A DNA stretch of 43,233 nt from a virus (taxonomy: Duplodnaviria > Heunggongvirae > Uroviricota > Caudoviricetes): the IMG/VR virus record IMGVR_UViG_2516143027_000009; one strand, 5' to 3'. A program made the position numbers and the translations under genes. This document shows positions 3,389 through 41,949 of the stretch, piece by piece (position 1 is the stretch's first letter; the number at the start of each line of letters is the position of its first letter). The notes under the pieces were generated by a model. That model did no database searches and was not told where the DNA came from. It worked only from the letters and a program-made list of their open reading frames with translations.

Positions 3389-6300
3389 AACGTTCTTCCA
3401 GAGACTGAATCCGCTCTTTTATCTTATCCATTTCTCTGCGCTGCCATGCCGCCTCGATATAGAATAAGAGATCAGGTCTGACCCCCCATCTAGATCCTGC
3501 TGGCGTTATTTCAACGCGCTCAATGATGTCTTCCATTACCATCACTGGATTATCATCCTCATCAACAATGATGCTCCCTTCATTATCAGTCAGCGGCATT
3601 TCCCTTTGGCCAGTAATGACGTCATCATATACTGCGGGATAATCGTCATAGCAAAGAAAGGCATAGCGGCATGTTGTGCTTTCTTCTTCCATGAGTCCGT
3701 GAGAAATAAGAACATCACGAAGTTGCTGCGCGATTACACCATGATGTATCCTCGCCCCTTCTTCCCCCTTTATAGCGACAGCGTTCAGCCATTTATAAGC
3801 GATATACCTGACGTCACCCCAGGCATCCAGCAATGCTTCGTCAGGAGAGACCGGCTCTGTCTTTAATGTTCCGTCACTGGTAACCACAGGATTGGAGCCA
3901 AGATAAACTGTCGAGAACCTGTTTCCCGGACCACCAAGAGCATTTACATTATCAAGATAAGGTTTAACATCTCCGTTCTCAAAAAGATGTTCGAGTGCGT
4001 TATATACCGCGCGACGTGGAGTACTGCTTCCGGAACCATGCAACGTTATCATTGCACCATCTGCTGAAGACGTTGTTTCACCGCCGCTAACGATTAATCT
4101 CTGAGCGGTAACATCATCAGACGGTACTTTCTTCGCAATAATGGCGTAATTACCCTCAAGTTTGACTTCCGCGCGAACTTGTCCTGATGTACCTGCATGG
4201 ACAGTCAGTGACTGGACGGCAACATCATCTGTGAAATCAACGGGTACAGGAACCGTCCTCACGCCTGACGTCGACATAAAAGTAGGAAGCGTTCTGTTAG
4301 GAGTGGCTCCGTAGACAAAATCCCTTGAAACAAATTCTTCCTGTTTAATTTTCACCCTGAAACAATACAAATCAGCCGGGTGACCATCGTGAACATAAGG
4401 ATATTTTCTGTTGTTATCCCCTATGCTCCATGGGTTTAGAAAGTCTTCCCCACCGAAAATGTAGTACAGCCAGTTGTCTTTGATACAAACTGAACCAACA
4501 CCAACCGCAGAGTTAACTATTCCGCCCTGATAAATCTGATCAGTAACATTAACCCACTCTACATTATCCAGACTCCACTCATTGACGTTAACTCTGGTCA
4601 TAAATGTTCTTGGATAATTTCCTGCATAACGGTTATCAGGTTCTCCTCCTTCCCACTCACCAAATGCGCGCTCACTGCCAAAAATAATCAGCTCATCGCC
4701 AACTTTGGCAAAAGGAAGGTTTGAGTGATGAACATTATTTGGGAAGCGAAGAGAATTCCATGATGTACCTAAATCAGAGCTTCTGTGCAATGAACTACCG
4801 GGTTGAGTACTTAATGTCCCCCTGGTCGTCAGATACAGAATGCCATCATAATATTTTACACATGGCTCAGATGCATTCGCCTCATATTCTGCAGGTATGC
4901 GTCTGCGAACAAAGCTACCAGGAGAACCGAAAGCATCAGAGAAATAGAGTATCCCAAGCTCGCGTGGACCAATATCACCATTATGGTAGCCAACAGCAAA
5001 ACTGTTATCGCTAATCGTCGCAAAACTGTGAATCTCAGTAACAGGAGTGCTTCCGTCAACAAAAGAAGGAATAGTTCCAAGACTGGTTTTTCTCCATGGT
5101 GACGAGTGAAATGATGTACCAAAACTCCAGTATCTACCCTCGTTATTCTGATCCACATCCTGGGTATTTTGCGTCGTAACTGTAAAAGTATTTTTATCAA
5201 TAACAGTAGTCACCGTCATATTCCCGGTAACACCTGTAACACCAGAGTTTGAGAAGTTGACAAAATCACCAGCAAATAATCCGTGATCAGTAATGCGAAT
5301 ATAAGCGACTTGCTGATTTGCTGCTTTCGTTATACCACCATAAACGCGAAGGCTGCGACTCATTGGGCGATCCCACAACTCTGCAACCTGCAGTTTATTT
5401 CCGCTCACGGTCCGCGTCTCAATTACAGCAAAAAGGCGATTTCTGACAACCCCCATACTCATGCAGTGATAGTTAACTGTGGGATAGTTTTCATGTAAAT
5501 CTGTAAGCCATTCCGGCGTTGTCCAGGTCTTCCCGTCATCTCCTGAGCGAACCCATGCAACATGGAGGTTATTTACACCATGGCGGTCTCCAGCCATAAA
5601 AGGCGCATAGATGACATTGTCATATACAAACGTTTTATCCTGCGTCCAGGCGTTGTACCACGGTGTATCTGTAATTTTAAATAACTCTCCCTGGATAAAA
5701 TCTTCAGAAGCATAAAAAAGAGGCTGACCCGGTATTCTCTCAAATAAAAAACGAGCATTTTTAAATCGACTGACATCCGGAAGAGTTGATACTTTAAAAG
5801 TAAGCCCTAATCCGTCAATTTTATAACCTGGAGATGAGGCTTCAAGGCACGCGCTTATTGCAGTGGAATCGTCATTTATACCATCACCAACAGCTCCAAA
5901 ATCTTTGGGGCTAATAGCATCACGCATTTTATCCTGGAACGTTCGGTACACAGCCCCAGAACCATACTGAATAAACCAACCAAAACCACCAACAACCCCG
6001 GCGATTGCAGCATCGACATAATTACGCATTGAGCGATTATTTACAGCGTCCTGCTCAAATGATGGATCTGCAAGGTTAGAAATTTTGTTTTGCTTTGCAT
6101 CGTAATATTTTGCAAGCAAAGATGGTTTCATCAATGCACGTCTGAACCACCCAAAACATTGCTGGATCAGCATCGTCAGGTAGTCAAAGGCATCTTCATG
6201 CACTTCGGGGAAAAATTTTCCCTGATTGCGAAGGTCTGTCTCCTGCACTACATCAAGCACACGATCTATCGTAATTCGCCATCCAGTAGCAAGCGGAGAC

Positions 6301-27382: not shown

Positions 27383-27459
27383 GTGGCATTAGCTCAGTTG
27401 GACAGAGCAACCGCCTTCTAAGCGGTTGGTCGCAGGTTCGAATCCTGCATGCCACGCCA
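27383..27459 (+). tRNA. tRNA-Arg (anticodon UCU), phage-encoded
   Basis: Cloverleaf by eye: acceptor GTGGCAT/ATGCCAC, D-arm GCTC-AGTTGGAC-AGAGC, anticodon stem ACCGC/GCGGT with loop CTTCTAA, T-arm GCAGG-TTCGAAT-CCTGC, discriminator G and encoded CCA. Confidence 0.85.
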
Positions 27460-35445: not shown

Positions 35446-36030
35446 ATGAAAAGTATCCAGGACGTCCGCAGGCAAAATCTCAACGACTTGATCGACCGTG
35501 AATTCAATGGTGTTCAGACGCGGATGGCAGAAAAACTTGGAACTCAGGCAAATCTGGTAAACCGCTGGGCTCTTGGCAAGAAGGTTATCGGCGACCAGGT
35601 TGCGCGAAAAATTGAAGCTGCCGCCAATAAACCCCGTAACTGGCTTGATATCGATCGCTCGCTTTCTCAGGAAGGTTTTCAGCCTGTCGGCCCAAGCGAC
35701 ATTGGTCAGCTGGCGGCTCACAACCTGGAACGCTGGATGAGCGAAAGCCGCGACCTTTCAACACAGGGAAAACTTCACCGCGCATCCGGCGTCGCCCAGG
35801 TGACAATCAGCCGCCTGTTAAACAATGAGGTCAGCGTTTCCATTTCCACCCTGGAGAATGTTGCATCCGCATTCGGGCGTCACGGATATGAACTACTGAT
35901 TCACCCGCACGACCCTGCGACTATCAACTATGACCGCTCACGCTACGCATTGTTACCCGAAACCGAGAAAGCAAAGATCGAAAGTTACATTGAATTTGTC
36001 ATCAACCAGAACGAAAAAAGCAAACAATAA
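35446..36030 (+). CDS. Immunity repressor (CI-like), dual HTH, no S24 peptidase domain
   Basis: N-terminal HTH (TQANLVNRWALGKKVIGDQVARKIEAAANKPRNWL) and a second HTH-like segment (ASGVAQVTISRLLNNEVSVSISTLENVASAFG); no Ser/Lys autocleavage motifs; flanked by operator clusters. Confidence 0.65.
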   Translation: MKSIQDVRRQNLNDLIDREFNGVQTRMAEKLGTQANLVNRWALGKKVIGDQVARKIEAAANKPRNWLDIDRSLSQEGFQPVGPSDIGQLAAHNLERWMSESRDLSTQGKLHRASGVAQVTISRLLNNEVSVSISTLENVASAFGRHGYELLIHPHDPATINYDRSRYALLPETEKAKIESYIEFVINQNEKSKQ

Positions 36031-36050
36031 AACTATATTTTTCAGTAAGT

Positions 36051-36075
36051 AAGCCGCCTCATGGCGGCTTTTTTA
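36051..36075 (+). terminator. Rho-independent terminator after the repressor gene
   Basis: Hairpin AAGCCGCC-TCAT-GGCGGCTT followed by T7. Confidence 0.65.
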
Positions 36076-36087
36076 TTGCCATCAAGA

Positions 36088-36164
36088 TTACCTTATGGGT
36101 AATTTTTTTAACTCATATCTATTGACATCAAACCAAATACGCATAATCATTACCTCAACGGTAA
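36088..36164. promoter_or_regulatory. OL/PL-like region: two operator palindromes flanking a TTGACA promoter
   Basis: TTACC-TTATG-GGTAA (36088..36102); TTGACA at 36122..36127 with CATAAT about 15 bp downstream; TTACC-TCAAC-GGTAA (36150..36164). Confidence 0.6.
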
Positions 36165-36182
36165 CAAGCCGAGGTAACAAGT

Positions 36183-36332
36183 TATGCAGTGGAAAATCAT
36201 CAACGGTTGGTACTGCGTTACTGCATGCGGATTCATGAGCTGGAAGTTCCGCACCTTACAGGAAGGCATCAAGTGGGCTTTCGTCAGCAAAGAAGCTCGC
36301 GATGTGGCAAACGATAACGAGATATGGGAGTA
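36183..36332 (+). CDS. Small hypothetical protein, first gene of the early-left operon
   Basis: RBS GAGG 8 nt before ATG; 49 aa; below the ORF-track length cutoff. Confidence 0.35.
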
Positions 36333-36341
36333 GGTTAGCAA

Positions 36342-37376
36342 ATGAGTGAATTATCAATCATCGAAATCACACCAGACATGGCACCAAGAATTTACGTTGA
36401 AAAAGGGCTGGAAAAGTTTCTCGAGCAGATCCGTGAAGGTGTTAATGAAGTGCCTGACATTAGCACAGACAAAGGCAGAAAGCGCATTGCATCTCTGGCT
36501 GCGAAGGTTTCAAGAAGTAAAACAGCGGTAGAAAAACCAGGACGTGATTATCTGAAACGCCTGAAAGAACAGCCGAAAGTAGTTGAAGCAGAGTTACGAC
36601 GCTTCGTAACCGAATGCGATCGGCTTCGTGATGAAGTACGCCGCCCACTCACCGAGTGGGAAAATGCTGAGAAATTACGCACTGAAGCACTGCAACAACG
36701 CCTGACAAATTTGCGAGCACTAGCTGACGTGATCGATCTCTCCGGAAACTACTTGCCATCATCTGATATTCAGGAACGAATTCAAGAGGCTAAATCAGTA
36801 GCACTTGATGAAAGTTGGCAGGAGTACGCAGCAGAAGCTGGAGTAGCCAAGGATTCAACCATCAAGAAACTGGAAGAATCACTCGCAGTAGCTCAAAAAC
36901 GCGAGCATGAAGCCGCTGAGCTGGAGCGACTTCGCAAAGAAGCGGAGGAAAAAGCGCGCATTGAGCGAGAAGAGAATATCCGACGGGAAGCTGCTGAACA
37001 GGCCAGGCTCGAAGCTGAACAAAAAGCGAAAGCTGAAATTGAGGCTGCGGCACGCCTGGCGGCGGAAGAAAAAGCACGTGCTGAAGTAGCAGAACGTCAG
37101 CGAATTGAAGCAGAGCAGCGTGCACGACGCGAAAAAGAAGAAGCCGTTGCCGAGGAACGCCGACGCCAAGAGGCGGCAGAAAAAGCCCGCCTTGACGAAC
37201 AGAAGCGTATCGCCGACGAAGAAGCGCGCCGAGCTGCAGATAAAGAGCATCGCCGTACCGTTAACCGCAGAGTAATCGCAGATCTGATAGCCCAAGGCAT
37301 TCACGAAGAATTCGCGCAGAAAGCAATGTTGGCTATCGCTGGCGGCAAAGTGCAGGACGCGTATATCAAATATTGA
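36342..37376 (+). CDS. Coiled-coil protein with Ala/Glu/Lys/Arg-rich TolA-like repeats
   Basis: 344 aa; globular N-terminal domain followed by a long EAxxKA-type repeat region. Confidence 0.55.
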   Translation: MSELSIIEITPDMAPRIYVEKGLEKFLEQIREGVNEVPDISTDKGRKRIASLAAKVSRSKTAVEKPGRDYLKRLKEQPKVVEAELRRFVTECDRLRDEVRRPLTEWENAEKLRTEALQQRLTNLRALADVIDLSGNYLPSSDIQERIQEAKSVALDESWQEYAAEAGVAKDSTIKKLEESLAVAQKREHEAAELERLRKEAEEKARIEREENIRREAAEQARLEAEQKAKAEIEAAARLAAEEKARAEVAERQRIEAEQRARREKEEAVAEERRRQEAAEKARLDEQKRIADEEARRAADKEHRRTVNRRVIADLIAQGIHEEFAQKAMLAIAGGKVQDAYIKY

Positions 37377-37377
37377 G

Positions 37378-37683
37378 GTGGGTATGAACGTTAATCAGCA
37401 GAAAAATCTTCAAAAAATCATGCTGGCATTCGACAAGGACTACCGCCTGTCAGAACAGCTATATGACCGACAAGTTGAACTGATCGATAGCATCCGGCTT
37501 CATCAACTGGCCTCAACTTTTGACGCTGTAACAGGCAAAGGAGTTCGCCAGGAAGTACTGGAGGCTGCTAAAGACAGCCCTGAGTTCGAAGAACTGATGG
37601 ATGCCTACCGGCGAGAGGCAATGGCAATTATCGCCCGCTGGGATCTGGCGGATCGGATTGATGGGCAGAGGGAAGCGGCATGA
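37378..37683 (+). CDS. Hypothetical protein
   Basis: 101 aa ORF, translationally coupled between the coiled-coil gene and the nuclease gene. Confidence 0.5.
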   Translation: MGMNVNQQKNLQKIMLAFDKDYRLSEQLYDRQVELIDSIRLHQLASTFDAVTGKGVRQEVLEAAKDSPEFEELMDAYRREAMAIIARWDLADRIDGQREAA

Positions 37684-38501
37684 AACCGGGAATTTATTTC
37701 GACATCAGCAATGAGGACTACCACGCCGGTGACGGCGTGAGTAAGTCGCAACTGGACATGGTTGCCAAGAATCCGGCGCTTCTTAAATGGGTTCAGGCAG
37801 CACCAGAAGACGAAGAGAAAAAGTCTGCACTGGATATGGGAACCGCATTGCACTGCCTGCTTCTGGAGCCTGGAGAGTTCGACAAACGCTTCATTGTTTC
37901 ACCGAAATTCGATCGTCGGACGAAACAAGGTAAAGCTGACGAAGAAGCATTTCTTCGTGATGTAGCGGATATGGGGATTACGGTACTTGATGCCGAGCAG
38001 TGGCGGAAACTGGAGCTGATGCGTGATAGCGCAATGGCTCACCCGGCGGCACGCTGGATGCTGGAAGCACCTGGTTACTGCGAAGCATCAATGTACTGGA
38101 ATGATGAAGAGACTGGTGAGTTGTGCCGCATTCGTCCAGACAAATGGCTGAACGAGCACAACGTGATCGTCGACGTGAAAAAGGTTGCAGATATGGACCG
38201 TTTTGCACGCCACATCGAGGAATTCCGCTACCACGTGCAGGACGCAATGTACCGCGAAGGCGCAATGAGGGTTACTGGTCAGCCGCATGGTTTTTTCTTT
38301 CTTGCCGTGAGCGAAAGCATTGATTGTGGTCGGTATCCGGTACGCGTGTTCGAGCTGGATGCGCCGGATGTCGATGCCGGGCACGCTCTGTTCCGCCGGG
38401 ATCTGAATACCTATCACGAATGCCGCATCAACGATGAGTGGGGCGGAGTGGAAATTATTAAACGCCCTGACTGGGCACGTAAACAGGATATGTACGTATG
38501 A
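37680..38501 (+). CDS. recE: RecE-like exonuclease (PD-(D/E)XK nuclease domain)
   Basis: 273 aa; resembles the C-terminal nuclease domain of exonuclease VIII; immediately upstream of a RecT-like gene with start/stop overlap. Confidence 0.6.
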   Translation: MKPGIYFDISNEDYHAGDGVSKSQLDMVAKNPALLKWVQAAPEDEEKKSALDMGTALHCLLLEPGEFDKRFIVSPKFDRRTKQGKADEEAFLRDVADMGITVLDAEQWRKLELMRDSAMAHPAARWMLEAPGYCEASMYWNDEETGELCRIRPDKWLNEHNVIVDVKKVADMDRFARHIEEFRYHVQDAMYREGAMRVTGQPHGFFFLAVSESIDCGRYPVRVFELDAPDVDAGHALFRRDLNTYHECRINDEWGGVEIIKRPDWARKQDMYV

Positions 38502-39379
38502 GCAATGATATCGCAATCACATCACAACCAGGCGCAACTGTAGGTACTGCTGCGGCAATCTTCAGCCCGGAGGGCATGAATCAACTGGTGCGTTTCGCGG
38601 AGTTGATGTCACAAAGCAAAGCGACTGTACCGAAACATCTTGAAGGCAAACCTGCCGATTGTCTGGCGGTGACCATGCAGGCGGCACAGTGGGGAATGAA
38701 CCCTTTCGCCGTGGCGCAGAAAACGCATGTGGTAAACGGAACGTTAGGCTACGAAGCACAGTTGGTAAACGCGGTCGTATCCTCTTCCAGCCTGCTAGCG
38801 ACACGCCTGAATTATCGCTGGAGCGGTGACTGGTCGAATGTTAACGGCAAAACAGATAAATCACCGAATCTGACGGTAACTGTGTCAGCAGTTCTTAAAG
38901 GAGAAGCAGAACCCCGTGAGCTTACCATCAGTATGGCGCAAGCCGGAGTGCGTAACTCTCCATTGTGGGAACAGGATCCGCGCCAGCAGCTTGCCTATCT
39001 TTGCACGAAACGATGGGCTCGCCTGCACGCTCCTGATGTGCTTCTCGGTGTTTACACCCCTGACGAATTACAGGAAACGGCACCGCGCGTTGAGCGAGAC
39101 ATTACTCCGCAAACGACTACTGCTGCGGGAATGAACAGTCTGATCAACGCTAAACCAGTGAAAAAGCATGATGAGCAAACGCGTAAAGCGGATAGCCGTG
39201 ATCCAGAAGAAATGCTGATGGCCTTTACCAGCGCAGCGATGAATTACAGCACTGTCTCCGAACTGGATAAGGCTTACAAATACATTGCACAAAAACTTTC
39301 AGATGATGACGAACTGCTGGCAAAAGCCACCGACGTTTACAGCGTTCGTCGGGAAGAATTAAACGAAACATCTATGTAA
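38498..39379 (+). CDS. recT: RecT-family single-strand annealing recombinase
   Basis: 293 aa; conserved RecT-like central region (QAAQWGMNPF...GYEAQLVN); paired with the nuclease gene. Confidence 0.7.
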   Translation: MSNDIAITSQPGATVGTAAAIFSPEGMNQLVRFAELMSQSKATVPKHLEGKPADCLAVTMQAAQWGMNPFAVAQKTHVVNGTLGYEAQLVNAVVSSSSLLATRLNYRWSGDWSNVNGKTDKSPNLTVTVSAVLKGEAEPRELTISMAQAGVRNSPLWEQDPRQQLAYLCTKRWARLHAPDVLLGVYTPDELQETAPRVERDITPQTTTAAGMNSLINAKPVKKHDEQTRKADSRDPEEMLMAFTSAAMNYSTVSELDKAYKYIAQKLSDDDELLAKATDVYSVRREELNETSM

Positions 39380-39428
39380 CCACCACCGCGGCGCCACACG
39401 CGCCGCACTGCAACCAAGAGAGGTATTT

Positions 39429-39677
39429 ATGAAAGGTGCATTAGGTAAGAAGGAACTCCTGGCGGTGGTGCCACTGTCATGGAGCACTATCGACCGTATG
39501 GAGCGCGCAGGGGAATTTCCTAAACGCTGGTATATCACTGACAAACGCTGCGCATGGAACCGTGACGAAGTTGAGCGTTGGCTTGATGAACGTCAGGCAG
39601 CAAGCCCGGCAGAGTTCCAGGGTAAAAAACCTCCTGTTCAGCAACGTGTATATCGTCCCGTGAGCAACGCTGCATGA
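39429..39677 (+). CDS. AlpA-family transcriptional regulator or excisionase-like protein
   Basis: 82 aa; HTH region LSWSTIDRMERAGEFPKRWYITDKRCAWNRDEVERWL typical of AlpA/Xis-like proteins. Confidence 0.65.
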   Translation: MKGALGKKELLAVVPLSWSTIDRMERAGEFPKRWYITDKRCAWNRDEVERWLDERQAASPAEFQGKKPPVQQRVYRPVSNAA

Positions 39678-39791
39678 GTGCGCTGCTAAGGCACTGGATC
39701 AAATGGTCAGGATGGTACTTATTCCTGGCCTCTGTTTCAGCATGGCTTTATCTGCTGGCATTAATTTTCAGAGAGGGTTGGATTAAGTGAG
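39675..39791 (+). CDS. Small hydrophobic membrane peptide (38 aa)
   Basis: ATGA overlap with the AlpA-like stop; single TM helix WYLFLASVSAWLYLLALIF; below the ORF-track cutoff. Confidence 0.3.
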
Positions 39792-40086
39792 AAAGTTAAG
39801 CCGACTTGAAAAATATCACATGAATAAGGTTTCAATGCGCAGTCCGTCAAAGATTGTCGCCGTTACTCCTGCGGCGATAGAGATCGAAAAACGCGCGATT
39901 GAAAGAGAGAAAAAAGGGCAGTTCCGCATTGCCGCTCACCTTTGGCTTCAGTGTATGGATGTTGCTTCTGGTGATGTTGAGCGTGCAAGGATCGCGGTTC
40001 GCAGGGACCAATGTATCACAAAAGGTAACGGCCTTCGCCGTGGAGACTATAGCGGTATAGGATGTTGCGGGGTGGTTTATGACTAA
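39787..40086 (+). CDS. Hypothetical protein
   Basis: 99 aa ORF (GTG start, alternative ATG at 39820) overlapping neighbours. Confidence 0.4.
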   Translation: MRKLSRLEKYHMNKVSMRSPSKIVAVTPAAIEIEKRAIEREKKGQFRIAAHLWLQCMDVASGDVERARIAVRRDQCITKGNGLRRGDYSGIGCCGVVYD

Positions 40087-40729
40087 GAAATACACACTAA
40101 TCTATGCAGATCCACCCTGGGTATACCGGGACAAAGCCGCAGATGGTAATCGCGGTGCCGGTTTTAAATATCCGGTTATGAGTGTGATGGATATCTGCCG
40201 CCTTCCTGTGTGGGATTTGGCCGATGAAAACTGTCTGTTGGCCATGTGGTGGGTGCCAACACAACCACTCGAAGCACTAAAAGTTGTTGAAGCCTGGGGG
40301 TTCCGTCTGATGACCATGAAGGGCTTCACGTGGATAAAATGTGGTAGTCGACAACCAGATAAACTGGTTATGGGTATGGGACACATGACTCGCGCCAATA
40401 GTGAAGATTGCCTGTTTGCAGTTAAGGGAAAACTACCTCCGCGCATTAATGCAGGGATCGTTCAGTCATTTACCGCACCGCGGCTTGAGCATTCAAGAAA
40501 ACCAGATGTCGTTCGTGAAAAACTTGTGCAATTGTTAGGCGATGTTTCTCGCATTGAACTGTTCGCCCGCCAGACGTCTCATGGCTTCGATGTTTGGGGT
40601 AATCAGTGCGAAGACCCGGCAGTGCAACTACACCCCGGATACGCGTTGGATATTGGCGGATTAACAAATGCATTCAGCAATGCTCCGCTGTCACCAACAG
40701 ACAACCAGGGACGGGAGCGTGCAGCATGA
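40079..40729 (+). CDS. MT-A70-family DNA N6-adenine methyltransferase
   Basis: Catalytic motif DPPW near the N-terminus (IYADPPWVY); 216 aa. Confidence 0.75.
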   Translation: MTKKYTLIYADPPWVYRDKAADGNRGAGFKYPVMSVMDICRLPVWDLADENCLLAMWWVPTQPLEALKVVEAWGFRLMTMKGFTWIKCGSRQPDKLVMGMGHMTRANSEDCLFAVKGKLPPRINAGIVQSFTAPRLEHSRKPDVVREKLVQLLGDVSRIELFARQTSHGFDVWGNQCEDPAVQLHPGYALDIGGLTNAFSNAPLSPTDNQGRERAA

Positions 40730-40974
40730 AGCAGATTATGGTTGCACACAACGGCGTCAGGTTTGAAGTCGTCATGGTTTTGACTAAGTTCCACAATGAT
40801 GAGGTATTGCACAGAAAAGAAACTGTAACTTACCGTTATAAACACCGCAGTTCAGCTGTTAGAAAATTACGGAAGATTGCGGAAGAACTAAAAAATGATC
40901 CTCATCGTGTTATTGAGGTAAAAGGCAACCCATATAAAATCAAAACTTCAGTGGAGCTAAGACATATGCAATAA
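40726..40974 (+). CDS. Hypothetical small basic protein
   Basis: ATGA overlap with the methyltransferase stop; 82 aa. Confidence 0.45.
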   Translation: MKQIMVAHNGVRFEVVMVLTKFHNDEVLHRKETVTYRYKHRSSAVRKLRKIAEELKNDPHRVIEVKGNPYKIKTSVELRHMQ

Positions 40975-41097
40975 AATCACGCCTGACGAATCGCGATTAT
41001 CTCGCTATTGGTATTGCAGAGATTGCTGGACTCAATGGCGCATGATTTGACAATGCCGCCAGAGCTATCGCATACTGACCGCACTAGAAAACAAACA

Positions 41098-41135
41098 GCG
41101 GTCATCCGCACCCGATAGCTTTGCGGCTTTTTTAT
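41098..41135 (+). terminator. Rho-independent terminator ending the early-left operon
   Basis: Hairpin around CCGCA...TGCGG followed by CTTTTTT. Confidence 0.5.
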
Positions 41136-41298
41136 GCCTGCAATCTGGCATAGTCACATCCGTACAAAGGTCGGGTGGAGAGGCGTAATACAACACCCGA
41201 AAGGGGAATATGCCCGGAGCTACTGTTTGTGCTCTAGTTGACACCCGATCACCAGCTACTAACTGGTTTTCGTAACTAAAAACAAACAGGAGGTCATC

Positions 41299-41949
41299 AT
41301 GACCAGTCAACTCATCCCCGTATTCAACGGCACTATATCCAACGAAACCGCTCTTCTCGTTAATGCCCGTGATTTACACACTTTCCTCGATGTGGGTAAG
41401 CGATTTGCTTCGTGGATTGTCGAACGAATTGCTGAATATGGTTTCGTTGAAAATCAAGACTTTATGATTATTTCCCAAGTTCGGGAAAAAATAGGCAGAG
41501 GCCGTCCTGCAAAAGACTACCACCTCACCCTCGATACAGCCAAAGAGCTGGCGATGGTCGAGCGTAATGAAAAAGGTCGTCAGGTACGACGCTACTTCAT
41601 TGAATGCGAGAAACGTTTAAGACAACAAGAAACAAAAGTGGAGAAGGTCTTGTCAGGCTTCATGCCCGCCATTATGGAGGCGATCAAGCTGGAAGACAAA
41701 AAAGAATACAGTGCCCCACTGAAGCCCGGCTACCGCAGCCTGATTCACTCGCCGTCTGGTGTTCTCGGCCTGACGGAGCACTCACTGCTGATGAATCTGC
41801 TGAACCAGTTACAGGACGACGGGCACGACGTATCGGGCGCGGCGGCGGAGCTGACCACCATGTTCTGCTACATCGTCGGTGTGAGCAAATGCCTGCGTGA
41901 TATCCAGACTCACGCGGAGTACATCAACGACAAGGCAGGGTTCTTCTGA
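41299..41949 (+). CDS. Antirepressor-like protein, AntA-type N-terminal domain fused to the shared C-terminal module
   Basis: RBS CAGGAGG; N-terminal segment NARDLHTFLDVGKRFASWIVERIAEYGFVENQDF resembles AntA/AntB-type domains (from memory); C-terminal 80 aa near-identical to the 8108 and 9930 products. Confidence 0.65.
   Translation: MTSQLIPVFNGTISNETALLVNARDLHTFLDVGKRFASWIVERIAEYGFVENQDFMIISQVREKIGRGRPAKDYHLTLDTAKELAMVERNEKGRQVRRYFIECEKRLRQQETKVEKVLSGFMPAIMEAIKLEDKKEYSAPLKPGYRSLIHSPSGVLGLTEHSLLMNLLNQLQDDGHDVSGAAAELTTMFCYIVGVSKCLRDIQTHAEYINDKAGFF

Follow-up and report, generated by a model that had tools for sequence, protein, structure and literature searches.

The locus raises two questions: what kind of operon is formed by the ten tightly packed plus-strand genes at 36184 to 40974 of the 43,233-nucleotide stretch analyzed here (the window), and what is done by two of its products, a 344-aa long-helix protein and an MT-A70 methyltransferase, for which an earlier note had suggested actions on the host envelope or cell division and protection from restriction, respectively. 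Our results identify the block, with a probability of about 0.8 for this explanation as a whole, as the early-left (PL-type) operon of a Uetakevirus (phiV10/epsilon15-like) podophage integrated in E. coli. Positions 36000-41000 are 98.0% identical to phage phiv142-3 over 95% of their length, while phiV10, TL-2011b and ZX5 match at 95-98% nucleotide identity with gene order unchanged; because this level of identity is to annotated phages, the assignment is firm. Nucleotide identity and collinearity with the type members, on which membership in the Uetakevirus early-left group depends, are both present, and the structural half of the prophage is a 97% match to TL-2011b. Minor mosaic differences aside, the region is already sequenced and annotated in phiv142-3, phiV10, TL-2011b and ZX5, and the block is an ordinary one, consisting of the already known early genes of a phiV10/epsilon15-type prophage.

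The order of elements is common to phiv142-3 (MN187550), phiV10 (NC_007804), TL-2011b (NC_019445) and Salmonella phage epsilon15: repressor, terminator, p39, (344-aa protein), p38, RecE, RecT, AlpA, 38-aa peptide, PerC, MT-A70 and integrase. The same 344-aa gene is Orf45 of phiv142-3, whereas phiV10, TL-2011b and epsilon15 lack it. RecE and RecT are annotated in phiV10 as a single fused CDS, and where phiV10 has its DUF1382 gene an 82-aa ORF stands here. Relative to phiV10, TL-2011b and epsilon15, this prophage also gains an AntA antirepressor with a promoter of its own; the arrangement of the 82-aa ORF with AntA is shared only with phage HEMP4. The genes lie on the plus strand where the earlier note had placed them, and the operon starts one gene before the span it described, with the 49-aa ORF. 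They are as follows.

36184..36333, + strand: 49-aa ORF, homologue of phiV10p39/epsilon15p37 (the DNA aligns to phiV10 p39)
36342..37376, + strand: 344-aa long-helix protein, PHROG 1376 (Sf6 gp33 / D3 Orf53 family), by its phrog_1376 match
37384..37683, + strand: p38, a 99-aa acidic (pI 4.8) helical protein, phrog_856, phiV10p38; 4-nt overlap with recE
37680..38501, + strand: RecE-type 5'-3' exonuclease, 273 aa (Pfam DUF3799/PDDEXK, PDB 3H4R)
38498..39379, + strand: RecT single-strand annealing protein, 293 aa (Pfam RecT; phrog_561)
39429..39677, + strand: 82-aa AlpA-family HTH protein (Pfam Phage_AlpA, phrog_66)
39674..39790, + strand: 38-aa single-pass membrane peptide, phrog_17484, phiV10p35 (hydropathy and conservation)
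39787..40086, + strand: 99-aa PerC-family putative transcriptional activator, phrog_868; 8-nt overlap with the methyltransferase gene
40079..40729, + strand: orphan MT-A70 (class beta) N6-adenine methyltransferase, 216 aa (Pfam MT-A70)
40726..40974, + strand: 82-aa ORF, phrog_9805, last gene of the block, replacing the DUF1382 gene of phiV10

Successive genes are separated by 8, 7, -4, -4, 49, -4, -4, -8 and -4 nt, a packing that has the look of a single transcription unit. The sole sizeable gap, of 49 nt, folds at -17.3 kcal/mol in RNAfold and holds a hairpin that was considered as an intrinsic terminator and rejected, as it has no T-run. The control elements are listed below.

35446-36030: repressor gene, 194 aa
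36051..36070, + strand: intrinsic terminator after the repressor gene, an 8-bp GC-rich stem followed by a T-run
36088..36102, no strand assigned: operator-like palindrome TTACC-N5-GGTAA upstream of the -35 hexamer, its position conserved in phiV10
36122..36150, + strand: early-left promoter candidate TTGACA-17-AATCAT, between the terminator and the first ORF
36150..36164, no strand assigned: second operator-like palindrome TTACC-N5-GGTAA, at -10/+1, recognized by its recurrence and its conservation in phiV10
39388..39406, + strand: GC-rich 7-bp hairpin GCGGCGC-N5-GCGCCGC

The terminator, which the phiV10 annotation also carries, insulates the early-left operon from repressor transcription. The sigma-70-type promoter call is a consensus match only, with 10 of 12 positions in agreement, and a promoter scan of the whole region returned 8 promoter-like sites versus 9.6 in shuffles, no excess. 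The palindrome occurs at 14 sites in the window, where 0.71 would be expected, and recurs intergenically around the prophage; the two copies listed bracket the candidate promoter, and relative to phiV10 their arms are conserved while their spacers differ. Judging from position only, the phage repressor would bind these palindromes, and the operon would then be repressed in the lysogen and expressed once the phage is induced or infects a cell. As operators bracket its promoter, the operon is probably silent in a lysogen.

Several of the small genes could be placed in families. The AlpA-family protein, likely to be an excisionase or regulator, passes the PF05930 threshold marginally (24.2 bits versus a cut-off of 21) and matches phrog_66 (excisionase/regulator) at 2e-16, and the PerC-family protein passes PF06069 with 30.1 bits versus 22.6. 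The p38 reading frame is open from 37378, and its homologues begin at the ATG of 37384, for a product of 99 aa; a fold search with p38 gave no match. The small membrane peptide reported previously is a real conserved gene, with a Kyte-Doolittle score of 1.92 (19-aa window) and a reading frame that is unbroken, with conservative substitutions, in 38 related loci; the coordinates given for it then, 39675..39791, were off by one.

The core of the operon is a RecE(C-domain)/RecT recombination pair with p38 directly before it, and the Pfam and PDB matches uphold the earlier recognition of a RecE/RecT-like pair, RecE being the C-terminal nuclease domain only. The RecE-like protein scores 79.5 bits against Pfam DUF3799/PDDEXK and matches the Rac RecE nuclease domain (PDB 3H4R) at E=8e-78, and the PD-(D/E)XK catalytic residues are present, RPDK...DVKK here aligning with RPDK...DVKT of 3H4R. 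Its nuclease domain is ~50% identical to that of Rac prophage RecE (exonuclease VIII), with the RPDK...DVK motif kept, and, as in Rac, a gene for a RecT-family annealase (PF03837, 110.8 bits versus a threshold of 24) lies directly downstream and overlaps recE. However, Rac RecE has in addition an N-terminal part of ~600 residues that is missing here, and only the C-terminal catalytic domain of ~270 residues remains. A full-length RecE of ~870 aa is thus rejected: the match to the NCBIfam exonuclease VIII model covers only positions 606-873 of 877, and because of the absent N-terminal part the score of 311.9 bits misses the equivalog cut-off of 1269.

The methyltransferase is also what it had been taken to be. 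It scores 79.8 bits against MT-A70 (PF05063; cut-off 23.9) over profile positions 1-172 of 172, and carries the catalytic motif IV DPPW at residues 11-14 in MTKKYTLIYADPPWVY. PADLOC reports MTase_II at 5.6e-77, the methyltransferase only. A restriction-modification system was rejected, the adjoining genes being the PerC-like gene and the 82-aa ORF with no endonuclease, and restriction enzyme models had no match among the ten operon proteins scanned. The nearest studied relative, 83% identical over residues 1-187, is phiPA8 gp5 (M.EcoPA8orf6770P). This enzyme, like M.EcoGV an MT-A70 methyltransferase of Stx phages, also has DPPW, is encoded near the integrase end of an early operon and is preceded by a gene that overlaps the start codon. 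The C-terminal ~29 residues, however, are unrelated to those of the phiPA8 enzyme, and PNB-2 (143 aa) is missing, with the PerC-family gene in its place and no sequence similarity between the two; BLASTP gave no alignment of the PerC-family protein to either gp6/PNB-2 version. A holoenzyme of the M.EcoPA8orf6770P type was rejected for want of an adjacent PNB-2 specificity subunit.

Candidate substrates are GATC DNA, methylated in a Dam-like manner, and rRNA. Protection of phage DNA from host restriction by adenine methylation, most likely at GATC or with relaxed specificity, is a possible function, if short of a probable one. The class is that of orphan phage methyltransferases, the N6-adenine motif is intact, and the nearest PDB relatives are the ciliate enzyme MTA1, which methylates DNA to 6mA and is the closest of those solved, and METTL3. 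The close relative M.EcoGV methylates GATC in vivo if overproduced (as cited in PMC10810198). However, protection is not what the phiPA8 enzyme, at 83% identity, does: Gong, Chakraborty & Koudelka (2023, PMC10810198) found that with its PNB-2 partner it methylates 16S rRNA, and that it has only weak activity on DNA, unmethylated GATC DNA included. The window contains 162 GATC sites versus 168 expected, neither a depletion nor an enrichment, which also counts against the protective role. GATC is already methylated by host Dam in Dam+ E. coli, where such methylation would be redundant.

It is more doubtful that the enzyme is mainly a 16S rRNA methyltransferase that tunes prophage induction using another specificity subunit, such as the translationally coupled PerC-like protein. 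The identity to the characterized phiPA8 enzyme and the overlap of an upstream gene with the methyltransferase start in both phages agree with this, as does the difference seen here in the C-terminal tail, a segment that in phiPA8 is suspected by its authors to bind the partner (PMC10810198). On the other hand, a PNB-2 homologue is absent, and the same authors allow that variants without PNB-2 may behave differently (PMC10810198). Moreover, in 41 related loci the slot upstream of the methyltransferase is hypervariable, being filled by at least 10 unrelated gene families, and the tail type does not covary with the upstream gene. Whichever substrate applies, the proposed search for a new m6A motif in lysogen DNA is a poor test, because the operon is probably silent in the lysogen and GATC is already Dam-methylated; a lysogen with no new motif would tell little about the enzyme.

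The 344-aa protein and the 38-aa peptide were correctly described as uncharacterized. For the former, Pfam and PDB searches gave no match (best E=0.16 in a PDB structure search with the model), and a full-text literature search found no biochemical or genetic data on the family. It belongs to PHROG 1376 (E=1.8e-121, residues 2-344 on profile positions 5-362 of 362), a very large phage family without a Pfam family. The protein consists of a conserved N-domain (1-115), a middle part (116-185), an E/A/R/K single-helix spacer (186-300) and a C-domain (301-344); in the family alignment the spacer varies in length while the N- and C-domains are conserved. The central stretch of 115 residues is 28% E, 25% A and 27% R/K, and has 59 opposite-charge pairs at i/i+3 and i/i+4 versus 36.7 +/- 4.7 in shuffles, an excess that fits an ER/K single helix. 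The AF2 model (pLDDT 84.9) renders it as one unbroken helix of ~160 residues. Sf6 gene 33 protein, Pseudomonas phage D3 Orf53 and JBD44 gp65, at 34-43% identity, have the same three-part architecture, the same N/C domains and the same slot upstream of the recombination module, though their partner recombinase is Erf (with YqaJ or SSB) rather than RecE/RecT.

The TolA-like repeats and coiled coil that had been attributed to this protein were not borne out. TRF detected no repeat array in the gene; residues 186-300 are 10% hydrophobic, with a heptad-position maximum of <=0.25 and no heptads, and so are not a canonical coiled coil. The TolA model scored 17 bits against a cut-off of 213, the match being confined to the E/A/K/R region. 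A similar central helix is found in TolA domain II and in ER/K single alpha-helix (SAH) domains such as that of myosin VI, but TolA has a membrane anchor and domain III, and the 344-aa protein has no signal peptide, TM segment, hydrophobic N-terminal anchor or domain III. The likeness to TolA is one of composition, not homology.

The gene is an optional single-gene cassette: phiV10 differs from the present sequence by exactly one gene, which lies here between the stop codon of p39 and the start codon of p38, and among 5426 complete E. coli genomes 563 match the query 36100-37750, only 35 of them over >=80% of it, hence with the gene present. Its surroundings are less free. In IMG/VR, a strand-annealing gene lies at most 4 genes and 1.5 kb downstream on the same strand in 77/77 untruncated loci, in modules of RecE+RecT, RecT+YqaJ, RecT alone, Erf, Sak4+SSB or Rad52+SSB. 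The same adjacency occurs in the annotated phages D3 and JBD44 (Erf+YqaJ), Sf6 and GF-2 (Erf+SSB), Vibrio 1.086.O (RecE+RecT) and Serratia Eta (RecE+Bet), while upstream neighbors are variable. This synteny suggests a function connected with recombination or DNA ends, not with the envelope. We therefore favor, tentatively and at a little under even odds, a role as an accessory of the recombination module. As C-domains 92-94% identical to that of the 344-aa protein adjoin both Sak4 and Erf genes, the recombinase family is not mirrored in the C-domain; the protein probably acts on a feature that every module of this kind has, for example DNA ends, ssDNA or a host factor, rather than on one given recombinase or the envelope. 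Against an accessory role, adjacency may reflect a mosaic joint and not shared function, and the RecET-type modules of phiV10 and TL-2011b work without the gene, which is thus dispensable.

It is improbable that the gene is instead a moron-like cassette at a recombination-prone joint, unrelated to recombination and acting on the envelope or cell division. Its gene-sized presence/absence polymorphism, the mosaicism of the gene itself, the TolA domain II-like helix and homologues labeled "TolA protein," "cell envelope biogenesis protein" or "EnvC" are in keeping with this, but the labels stem from low-complexity matches, and the failed TolA model and missing envelope features described above argue otherwise. 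Recombinase adjacency also holds for at least nine module types that are unrelated to one another, in hosts that range from Escherichia to Vibrio and Pseudomonas, while the upstream neighbors change. The earlier proposal of an envelope or division target is not sustained, as it drew on E/A/R/K composition alone while the neighbors are invariably recombination genes.

A specific version of the recombination-accessory idea is that the protein inhibits RecBCD (the host nuclease) or protects DNA ends, so that linear phage DNA or recombination intermediates are shielded. The corresponding slot of Firmicutes phages, upstream of erf/sak4, is occupied by Mu-Gam-like, Gp157, DUF2483 or DUF1351 genes, and these have been proposed to have an analogous function (PMC8093625). 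Mu-Gam-like, Sipho_Gp157 and DUF1351 (PF07083) genes lie there whatever the SSAP family and encode helical proteins of 160-310 aa, whose resemblance to the 344-aa protein is one of position only. That the latter is such an inhibitor or protector, as their Proteobacterial counterpart, is unlikely, if less so than an envelope function. Like lambda gam and the Firmicutes Mu-Gam-like and Gp157 genes, it lies directly upstream of exonuclease/annealase genes; its N- and C-domains are basic (pI 8.7 and 9.7); and Pfam and PHROG profiles recognize no Gam, Abc2 or MuGam in the RecE/RecT module here. However, Sf6 carries gp33 alongside the anti-RecBCD gene Abc2, close relatives without the gene are viable phages, and the window holds 5 Chi sites, all co-oriented, versus 1.2 expected, a pattern that in lambdoid phages goes with an absent anti-RecBCD function (PMC12315714). 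Comparisons of fold and profile revealed no likeness to Gam, Mu Gam or Gp157. The lack of detectable Gp157/DUF1351 homology and of a PDB structural match also counts against an accessory role in general: hmmscan for DUF1351 and Sipho_Gp157 was empty even at E<=10, there were no PHROG cross-hits, and hhalign gave probabilities of 0.3 (Gp157) and 0.1 (DUF1351), a single-sequence template making this a weak test.

In summary, an accessory role in recombination remains our preferred, tentative reading of the 344-aa protein. The one useful lead of this region is a long-helix protein that is always encoded just upstream of phage recombination genes.

The early-left operon lies in a prophage of a well-sampled group. 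A megablast search with positions 36000-41000 matched Escherichia phage phiv142-3 at 98.0% identity with 95% of the query covered, while phiV10, TL-2011b, ZX5 and O157 typing phages 9 and 10, at 95-98% identity, covered just 69-79%; all of the phages matched are Uetakevirus (epsilon15-like) temperate podophages. TL-2011b matches the structural half of the window at 97%, and positions 36100-37750 are 100% identical to a chicken E. coli chromosome. Together, these matches indicate that the window is a mosaic yet ordinary member of this group. The locus is already known and common, with the same operon present in GenBank phages. As a locus, therefore, the operon contributes little: its promoter-to-recE segment (36100-37750) is matched in 563 of 5,426 complete E. 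coli genomes (~10%), of which only 35 reach 80% coverage or more and so include the 344-aa gene. The prophage also carries a tRNA-Arg gene (27383-27459; anticodon TCT), which reads the rare AGA codon.

The earlier note had described an operon combining RecE/RecT-like genes, a TolA-like coiled-coil protein, an MT-A70 methyltransferase and small unknowns. This observation is confirmed, every open reading frame named being present, whereas the interpretation placed on it is only partly supported. The operon starts earlier than was reported, at a 49-aa frame, and comprises ten genes.

Genes of the early-left operon, plus strand
36184-36333, p39, 49 aa, named after its phiV10 homologue
36342-37376, the 344-aa protein (PHROG 1376; Orf45 of phiv142-3)
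37384-37683, p38, 99 aa, most likely starting at the ATG at 37384, as in all homologues
37680-38501, RecE
38498-39379, RecT
39429-39677, AlpA-like protein
39674-39790, 38-aa peptide
39787-40086, PerC-like protein
40079-40729, MT-A70 methyltransferase
40726-40974, 82-aa frame spanning the whole of phrog_9805

Successive genes are spaced by 8, 7, -4, -4, 49, -4, -4, -8 and -4 nt. The window and its annotated relatives share the order repressor, terminator, phiV10p39, p38, RecE, RecT and AlpA-family protein, followed by the 38-aa membrane protein, PerC-type activator, adenine methylase, a small frame and, on the opposite strand, the integrase. The 344-aa gene is an exact one-gene difference from phiV10, inserted between the p39 stop and the p38 start, and among the annotated relatives only phiv142-3 has it. 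The right end (40726-41949) is mosaic: the 82-aa frame replaces the DUF1382 gene of phiV10 and TL-2011b, and an AntA/AntB-type antirepressor (41299-41949) with its own promoter-like site (41047-41076) lies between the operon and the integrase, an arrangement shared among GenBank phages by HEMP4 only (94.7% identity).

The operon is preceded by a control region, and one palindrome recurs throughout the prophage.

Control features of the early-left operon
36051-36070, good intrinsic terminator at the end of the repressor gene
36122-36150, promoter candidate TTGACA-17-AATCAT, downstream of the terminator
6611, 7731, 7824, 8890, 27046, 30191, 30209, 33027, 33089, 34991, 35328, 35376, 36088 and 36150, palindrome TTACC-N5-GGTAA

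With at most one mismatch, this 15-bp palindrome has 14 sites in the window against 0.71 expected, a number reached in 0 of 100 shuffles. The copies at 36088 and 36150 stand on either side of the promoter candidate, and two more lie in the divergent cro/repressor region. Judged from the ORF maps, the sites across the whole prophage and the immunity region appear to be intergenic or at gene starts. In phiV10 the palindromes are found at matching positions; their arms are conserved and their spacers differ. From this pattern we infer that the repressor uses TTACC-N5-GGTAA as its operator and that the lysogen does not express the operon. The scatter looks like one repressor governing many promoters, resembling the C1 operators of P1 or the 'stoperators' of cluster A mycobacteriophages. 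The repressor gene (35446-36030) points in the same direction as the operon and straight at it, the terminator at 36051-36070 being the sole separator; read-through from the repressor promoter would thus express the recombination genes. The operon's only sizeable gap, between recT and the AlpA-like gene, holds a perfect 7-bp GC hairpin without a T-run (GCGGCGC-N5-GCGCCGC, 39388-39406), which could be an RNA processing or attenuation element.

The RecE/RecT assignment was correct, as judged from Pfam, the exonuclease VIII model and matches to 3H4R. Pfam assigns the 273-aa protein to DUF3799 (PDDEXK). It aligns with positions 606-873 of the exonuclease VIII model (877 residues) and, at E=8e-78, with 3H4R, the crystallized nuclease domain of Rac RecE, and the RPDK...DVK(K/T) motif is conserved. 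What is encoded is thus the catalytic domain of RecE, the long N-terminal part being absent. RecT clearly belongs to Pfam RecT. The recE and recT genes are separate and overlap by ATGA in the window, TL-2011b and phiv142-3; the phiV10 record (3636-5396 of our locus L002, equivalent to 37680-39379 here) gives them as one fused 586-aa CDS, so that either the genes are truly fused there or the record contains a frameshift.

The small genes were also examined. The p38 protein is acidic (pI 4.8), helical (AF2 pLDDT 74.7) and confined to Enterobacteriaceae (53 clusters), and its gene shares 4 nt with recE. It stands where gam does in lambda, which is a lead only; a Gam analogue was not borne out by the AF2 model, a helical hairpin matching no PDB fold, and the small genes in the corresponding place in other phage groups resemble it weakly (best hhalign probability, 20%). 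The 38-aa peptide was rightly called, at slightly wrong coordinates. One segment of it is strongly hydrophobic (Kyte-Doolittle 1.92 over WYLFLASVSAWLYLLALIF). Its frame overlaps each neighbor by 4 nt and is intact in 38 related loci with conservative substitutions; it is a real gene. The AlpA- and PerC-family proteins both pass Pfam cut-offs.

The MT-A70 assignment holds (Pfam MT-A70, 79.8 bits; DPPW present), and the nearest solved structures are the ciliate DNA 6mA enzyme MTA1 and METTL3. PADLOC reports a type II methyltransferase with no nuclease, so the enzyme is an orphan. By tblastn, 512 phage records contain relatives; over 100 of these phages are Stx-converting, with relatives at ~83% identity. 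The proposal that it may protect phage DNA from restriction has to be set against its nearest studied relative, phiPA8 gp5 (M.EcoPA8orf6770P), which is 83% identical over residues 1-187. Alone, phiPA8 gp5 is weakly active on DNA; with PNB-2, the product of an upstream overlapping gene, it forms a 1:1 complex that prefers 16S rRNA in 30S subunits, and the intact gp5 gene raises spontaneous induction (PMC10810198). M.EcoGV, a close relative of gp5, methylates GATC in vivo when overproduced (PMC10810198). The window differs from phiPA8 in that the upstream overlapping gene is PerC-family and has no similarity to PNB-2, and in the last ~29 residues of the methyltransferase. A partner-subunit role for the PerC-like protein was rejected, as it lacks similarity to PNB-2 and as the C-terminal tail does not covary with the upstream gene across 41 related loci. 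In the same loci the slot upstream of the MT-A70 gene (39787-40086 in the window) is hypervariable, holding at least 10 unrelated gene families, and genes in this slot (loci L007-L086) usually overlap the methyltransferase start by 4 nt. Phage Lys19259Vzw had no match to the primer or terminator sequences of the phiPA8 paper. A search of lysogen DNA for a new m6A motif, as had been proposed, would probably be negative whatever the truth, because the operon is likely repressed and GATC is already Dam-methylated. Given that phiPA8 gp5 and its partner subunit together methylate 16S rRNA, an anti-restriction role cannot be assumed for the MT-A70 "DNA methylases" of enterobacterial prophages.

The 344-aa protein is not a TolA protein. 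The TolA match reaches 17 bits, where the cut-off is 213, and extends over the E/A/R/K stretch only, a match to the myosin VI SAH is ER/K-helix noise, and TRF finds no DNA tandem repeat in the gene, contrary to the "TolA-like repeats" of the earlier note. There is no Pfam match to the whole protein, its domains or 37 family members, and NCBIfam (above cut-off), PADLOC and PDB sequence and profile searches gave nothing apart from ER/K-helix noise. The protein belongs to PHROG 1376, to which no function is assigned; an exhaustive search with the N-terminal 175 residues (E<=1e-3) recovered 4,892 clusters at 50% identity. When 37 diverse members are aligned, four parts emerge. The N-domain is conserved, with the motif EVRxPLTxWE and invariant G45, K60, G67, R100 and P102; conservation is moderate in the middle part; the helical spacer that follows varies in length by ~100 residues; and the C-domain, of ~45 residues and ending in I-x-Y, is again conserved. 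AF2 (pLDDT 84.9) predicts helices at 11-33, 43-73, 78-134, 140-152 and 322-333 and a single helix over 157-317. Residues 186-300 are 28% E, 25% A, 27% R/K and just 10% hydrophobic; they contain 59 pairs of opposite charge at i/i+3 and i/i+4, where shuffles yield 36.7 +/- 4.7. This spacer has no heptad register and bears the signature of an ER/K single alpha-helix rather than of the classical coiled coil claimed previously. Foldseek with the AF2 model found nothing in the PDB (best E=0.16, TM<0.25) and only unnamed family relatives in BFVD. A profile search to widen the folding alignment was of no help, returning mostly Klebsiella proteins 74-77% identical. Literature searches brought up no study of the family, and the paper on ZX5 leaves these genes aside.

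A single result here deserves pursuit: PHROG 1376 genes are strictly associated with recombination modules of many unrelated types. We collected 80 IMG/VR loci encoding relatives at 41-99% identity, clustered their open reading frames and named the clusters by Pfam. A strand-annealing protein gene lies at most four genes and 1.5 kb downstream on the same strand in all 77 loci with enough downstream DNA; the genes upstream vary by group.

Modules downstream of PHROG 1376 genes
RecE-C and RecT, 47 loci
RecT and YqaJ exonuclease, 18 loci
RecT alone, 6 loci
Erf, 4 loci
Sak4 (AAA_24) and SSB, 1 locus
Rad52/Sak and SSB, 1 locus
Erf and YqaJ directly downstream, annotated phages D3 and JBD44
cIII/kil-type small genes, then Erf and SSB, Sf6 and Edwardsiella GF-2
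RecE-like protein and RecT, Vibrio 1.086.O
Exonuclease VIII and Bet, Serratia Eta

The annotated phages in the last four lines encode more distant relatives of the 344-aa protein and follow the pattern of the IMG/VR loci. Acinetobacter WUPSU is unannotated and therefore uninformative for this comparison. The C-terminal 49 residues of the 344-aa protein are 92-94% identical to those of relatives (L049 and L045) that adjoin Sak4 or Erf, whereas the N-domains are only 48% identical; the gene itself is thus mosaic, implying recombination within the helical spacer. From the neighbor survey and these mosaic C-domains we infer that the gene accompanies recombination modules in general, and that its conserved domains do not follow the family of the annealase. 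Rather than the annealase itself, the protein probably targets something that every module shares, for example DNA ends, single-stranded DNA or a host factor.

Our tentative reading, to which we give a probability of about one in three, is that the PHROG 1376 protein (Sf6 gp33, D3 Orf53 and the 344-aa protein) is an unrecognized, widespread fifth component of homologous-recombination modules in phages of Proteobacteria, beside SSB, nuclease, annealase and anti-RecBCD. It would be a two-headed protein whose ER/K helix keeps the conserved N- and C-domains ~15-25 nm apart. Whatever the annealase family, it may act by bridging DNA ends, by shielding them or by linking the module to a host factor. 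It may also be the functional counterpart of a slot in Firmicutes phages that holds DUF1351, Gp157 or Mu-Gam-like genes. In those phages the equivalent slot is filled by Mu-Gam-like, Gp157, DUF2483 or DUF1351 genes, for which analogous functions have been proposed (PMC8093625); Sfi21 orf157, directly before Sak4, is currently annotated as Mu-Gam-like end protection. The likeness is one of position only, as hhalign gave probabilities of 0.3 against Gp157 and 0.1 against DUF1351, with no PHROG cross-hits; the DUF1351 negative is weak, a deeper alignment scan having found only six close relatives.

Two observations bear on a pure RecBCD-inhibitor role. Sf6 also has Abc2, and the prophage holds five co-oriented Chi sites (GCTGGTGG) against 1.2 expected, with 1 of 100 shuffles reaching five.

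Chi sites in the window
15949, 18606, 20408, 23559 and 42362, all minus strand, four of them in structural genes

Among lambdoid phages, being rich in Chi is associated with having no anti-RecBCD gene (PMC12315714). Both observations argue against inhibition of RecBCD as the sole function of the 344-aa protein.

The "TolA protein" and "envelope biogenesis" labels on this family of ~4,900 clusters (50% identity) are compositional artifacts and should be dropped. The strict placement of the family ahead of recombination modules of nine or more unrelated kinds turns a mislabeled hypothetical protein into a testable candidate recombination accessory. Whether it supplies a missing accessory function can be tested cheaply, and the question is relevant to the recombineering toolkits built on RecET-type pairs.
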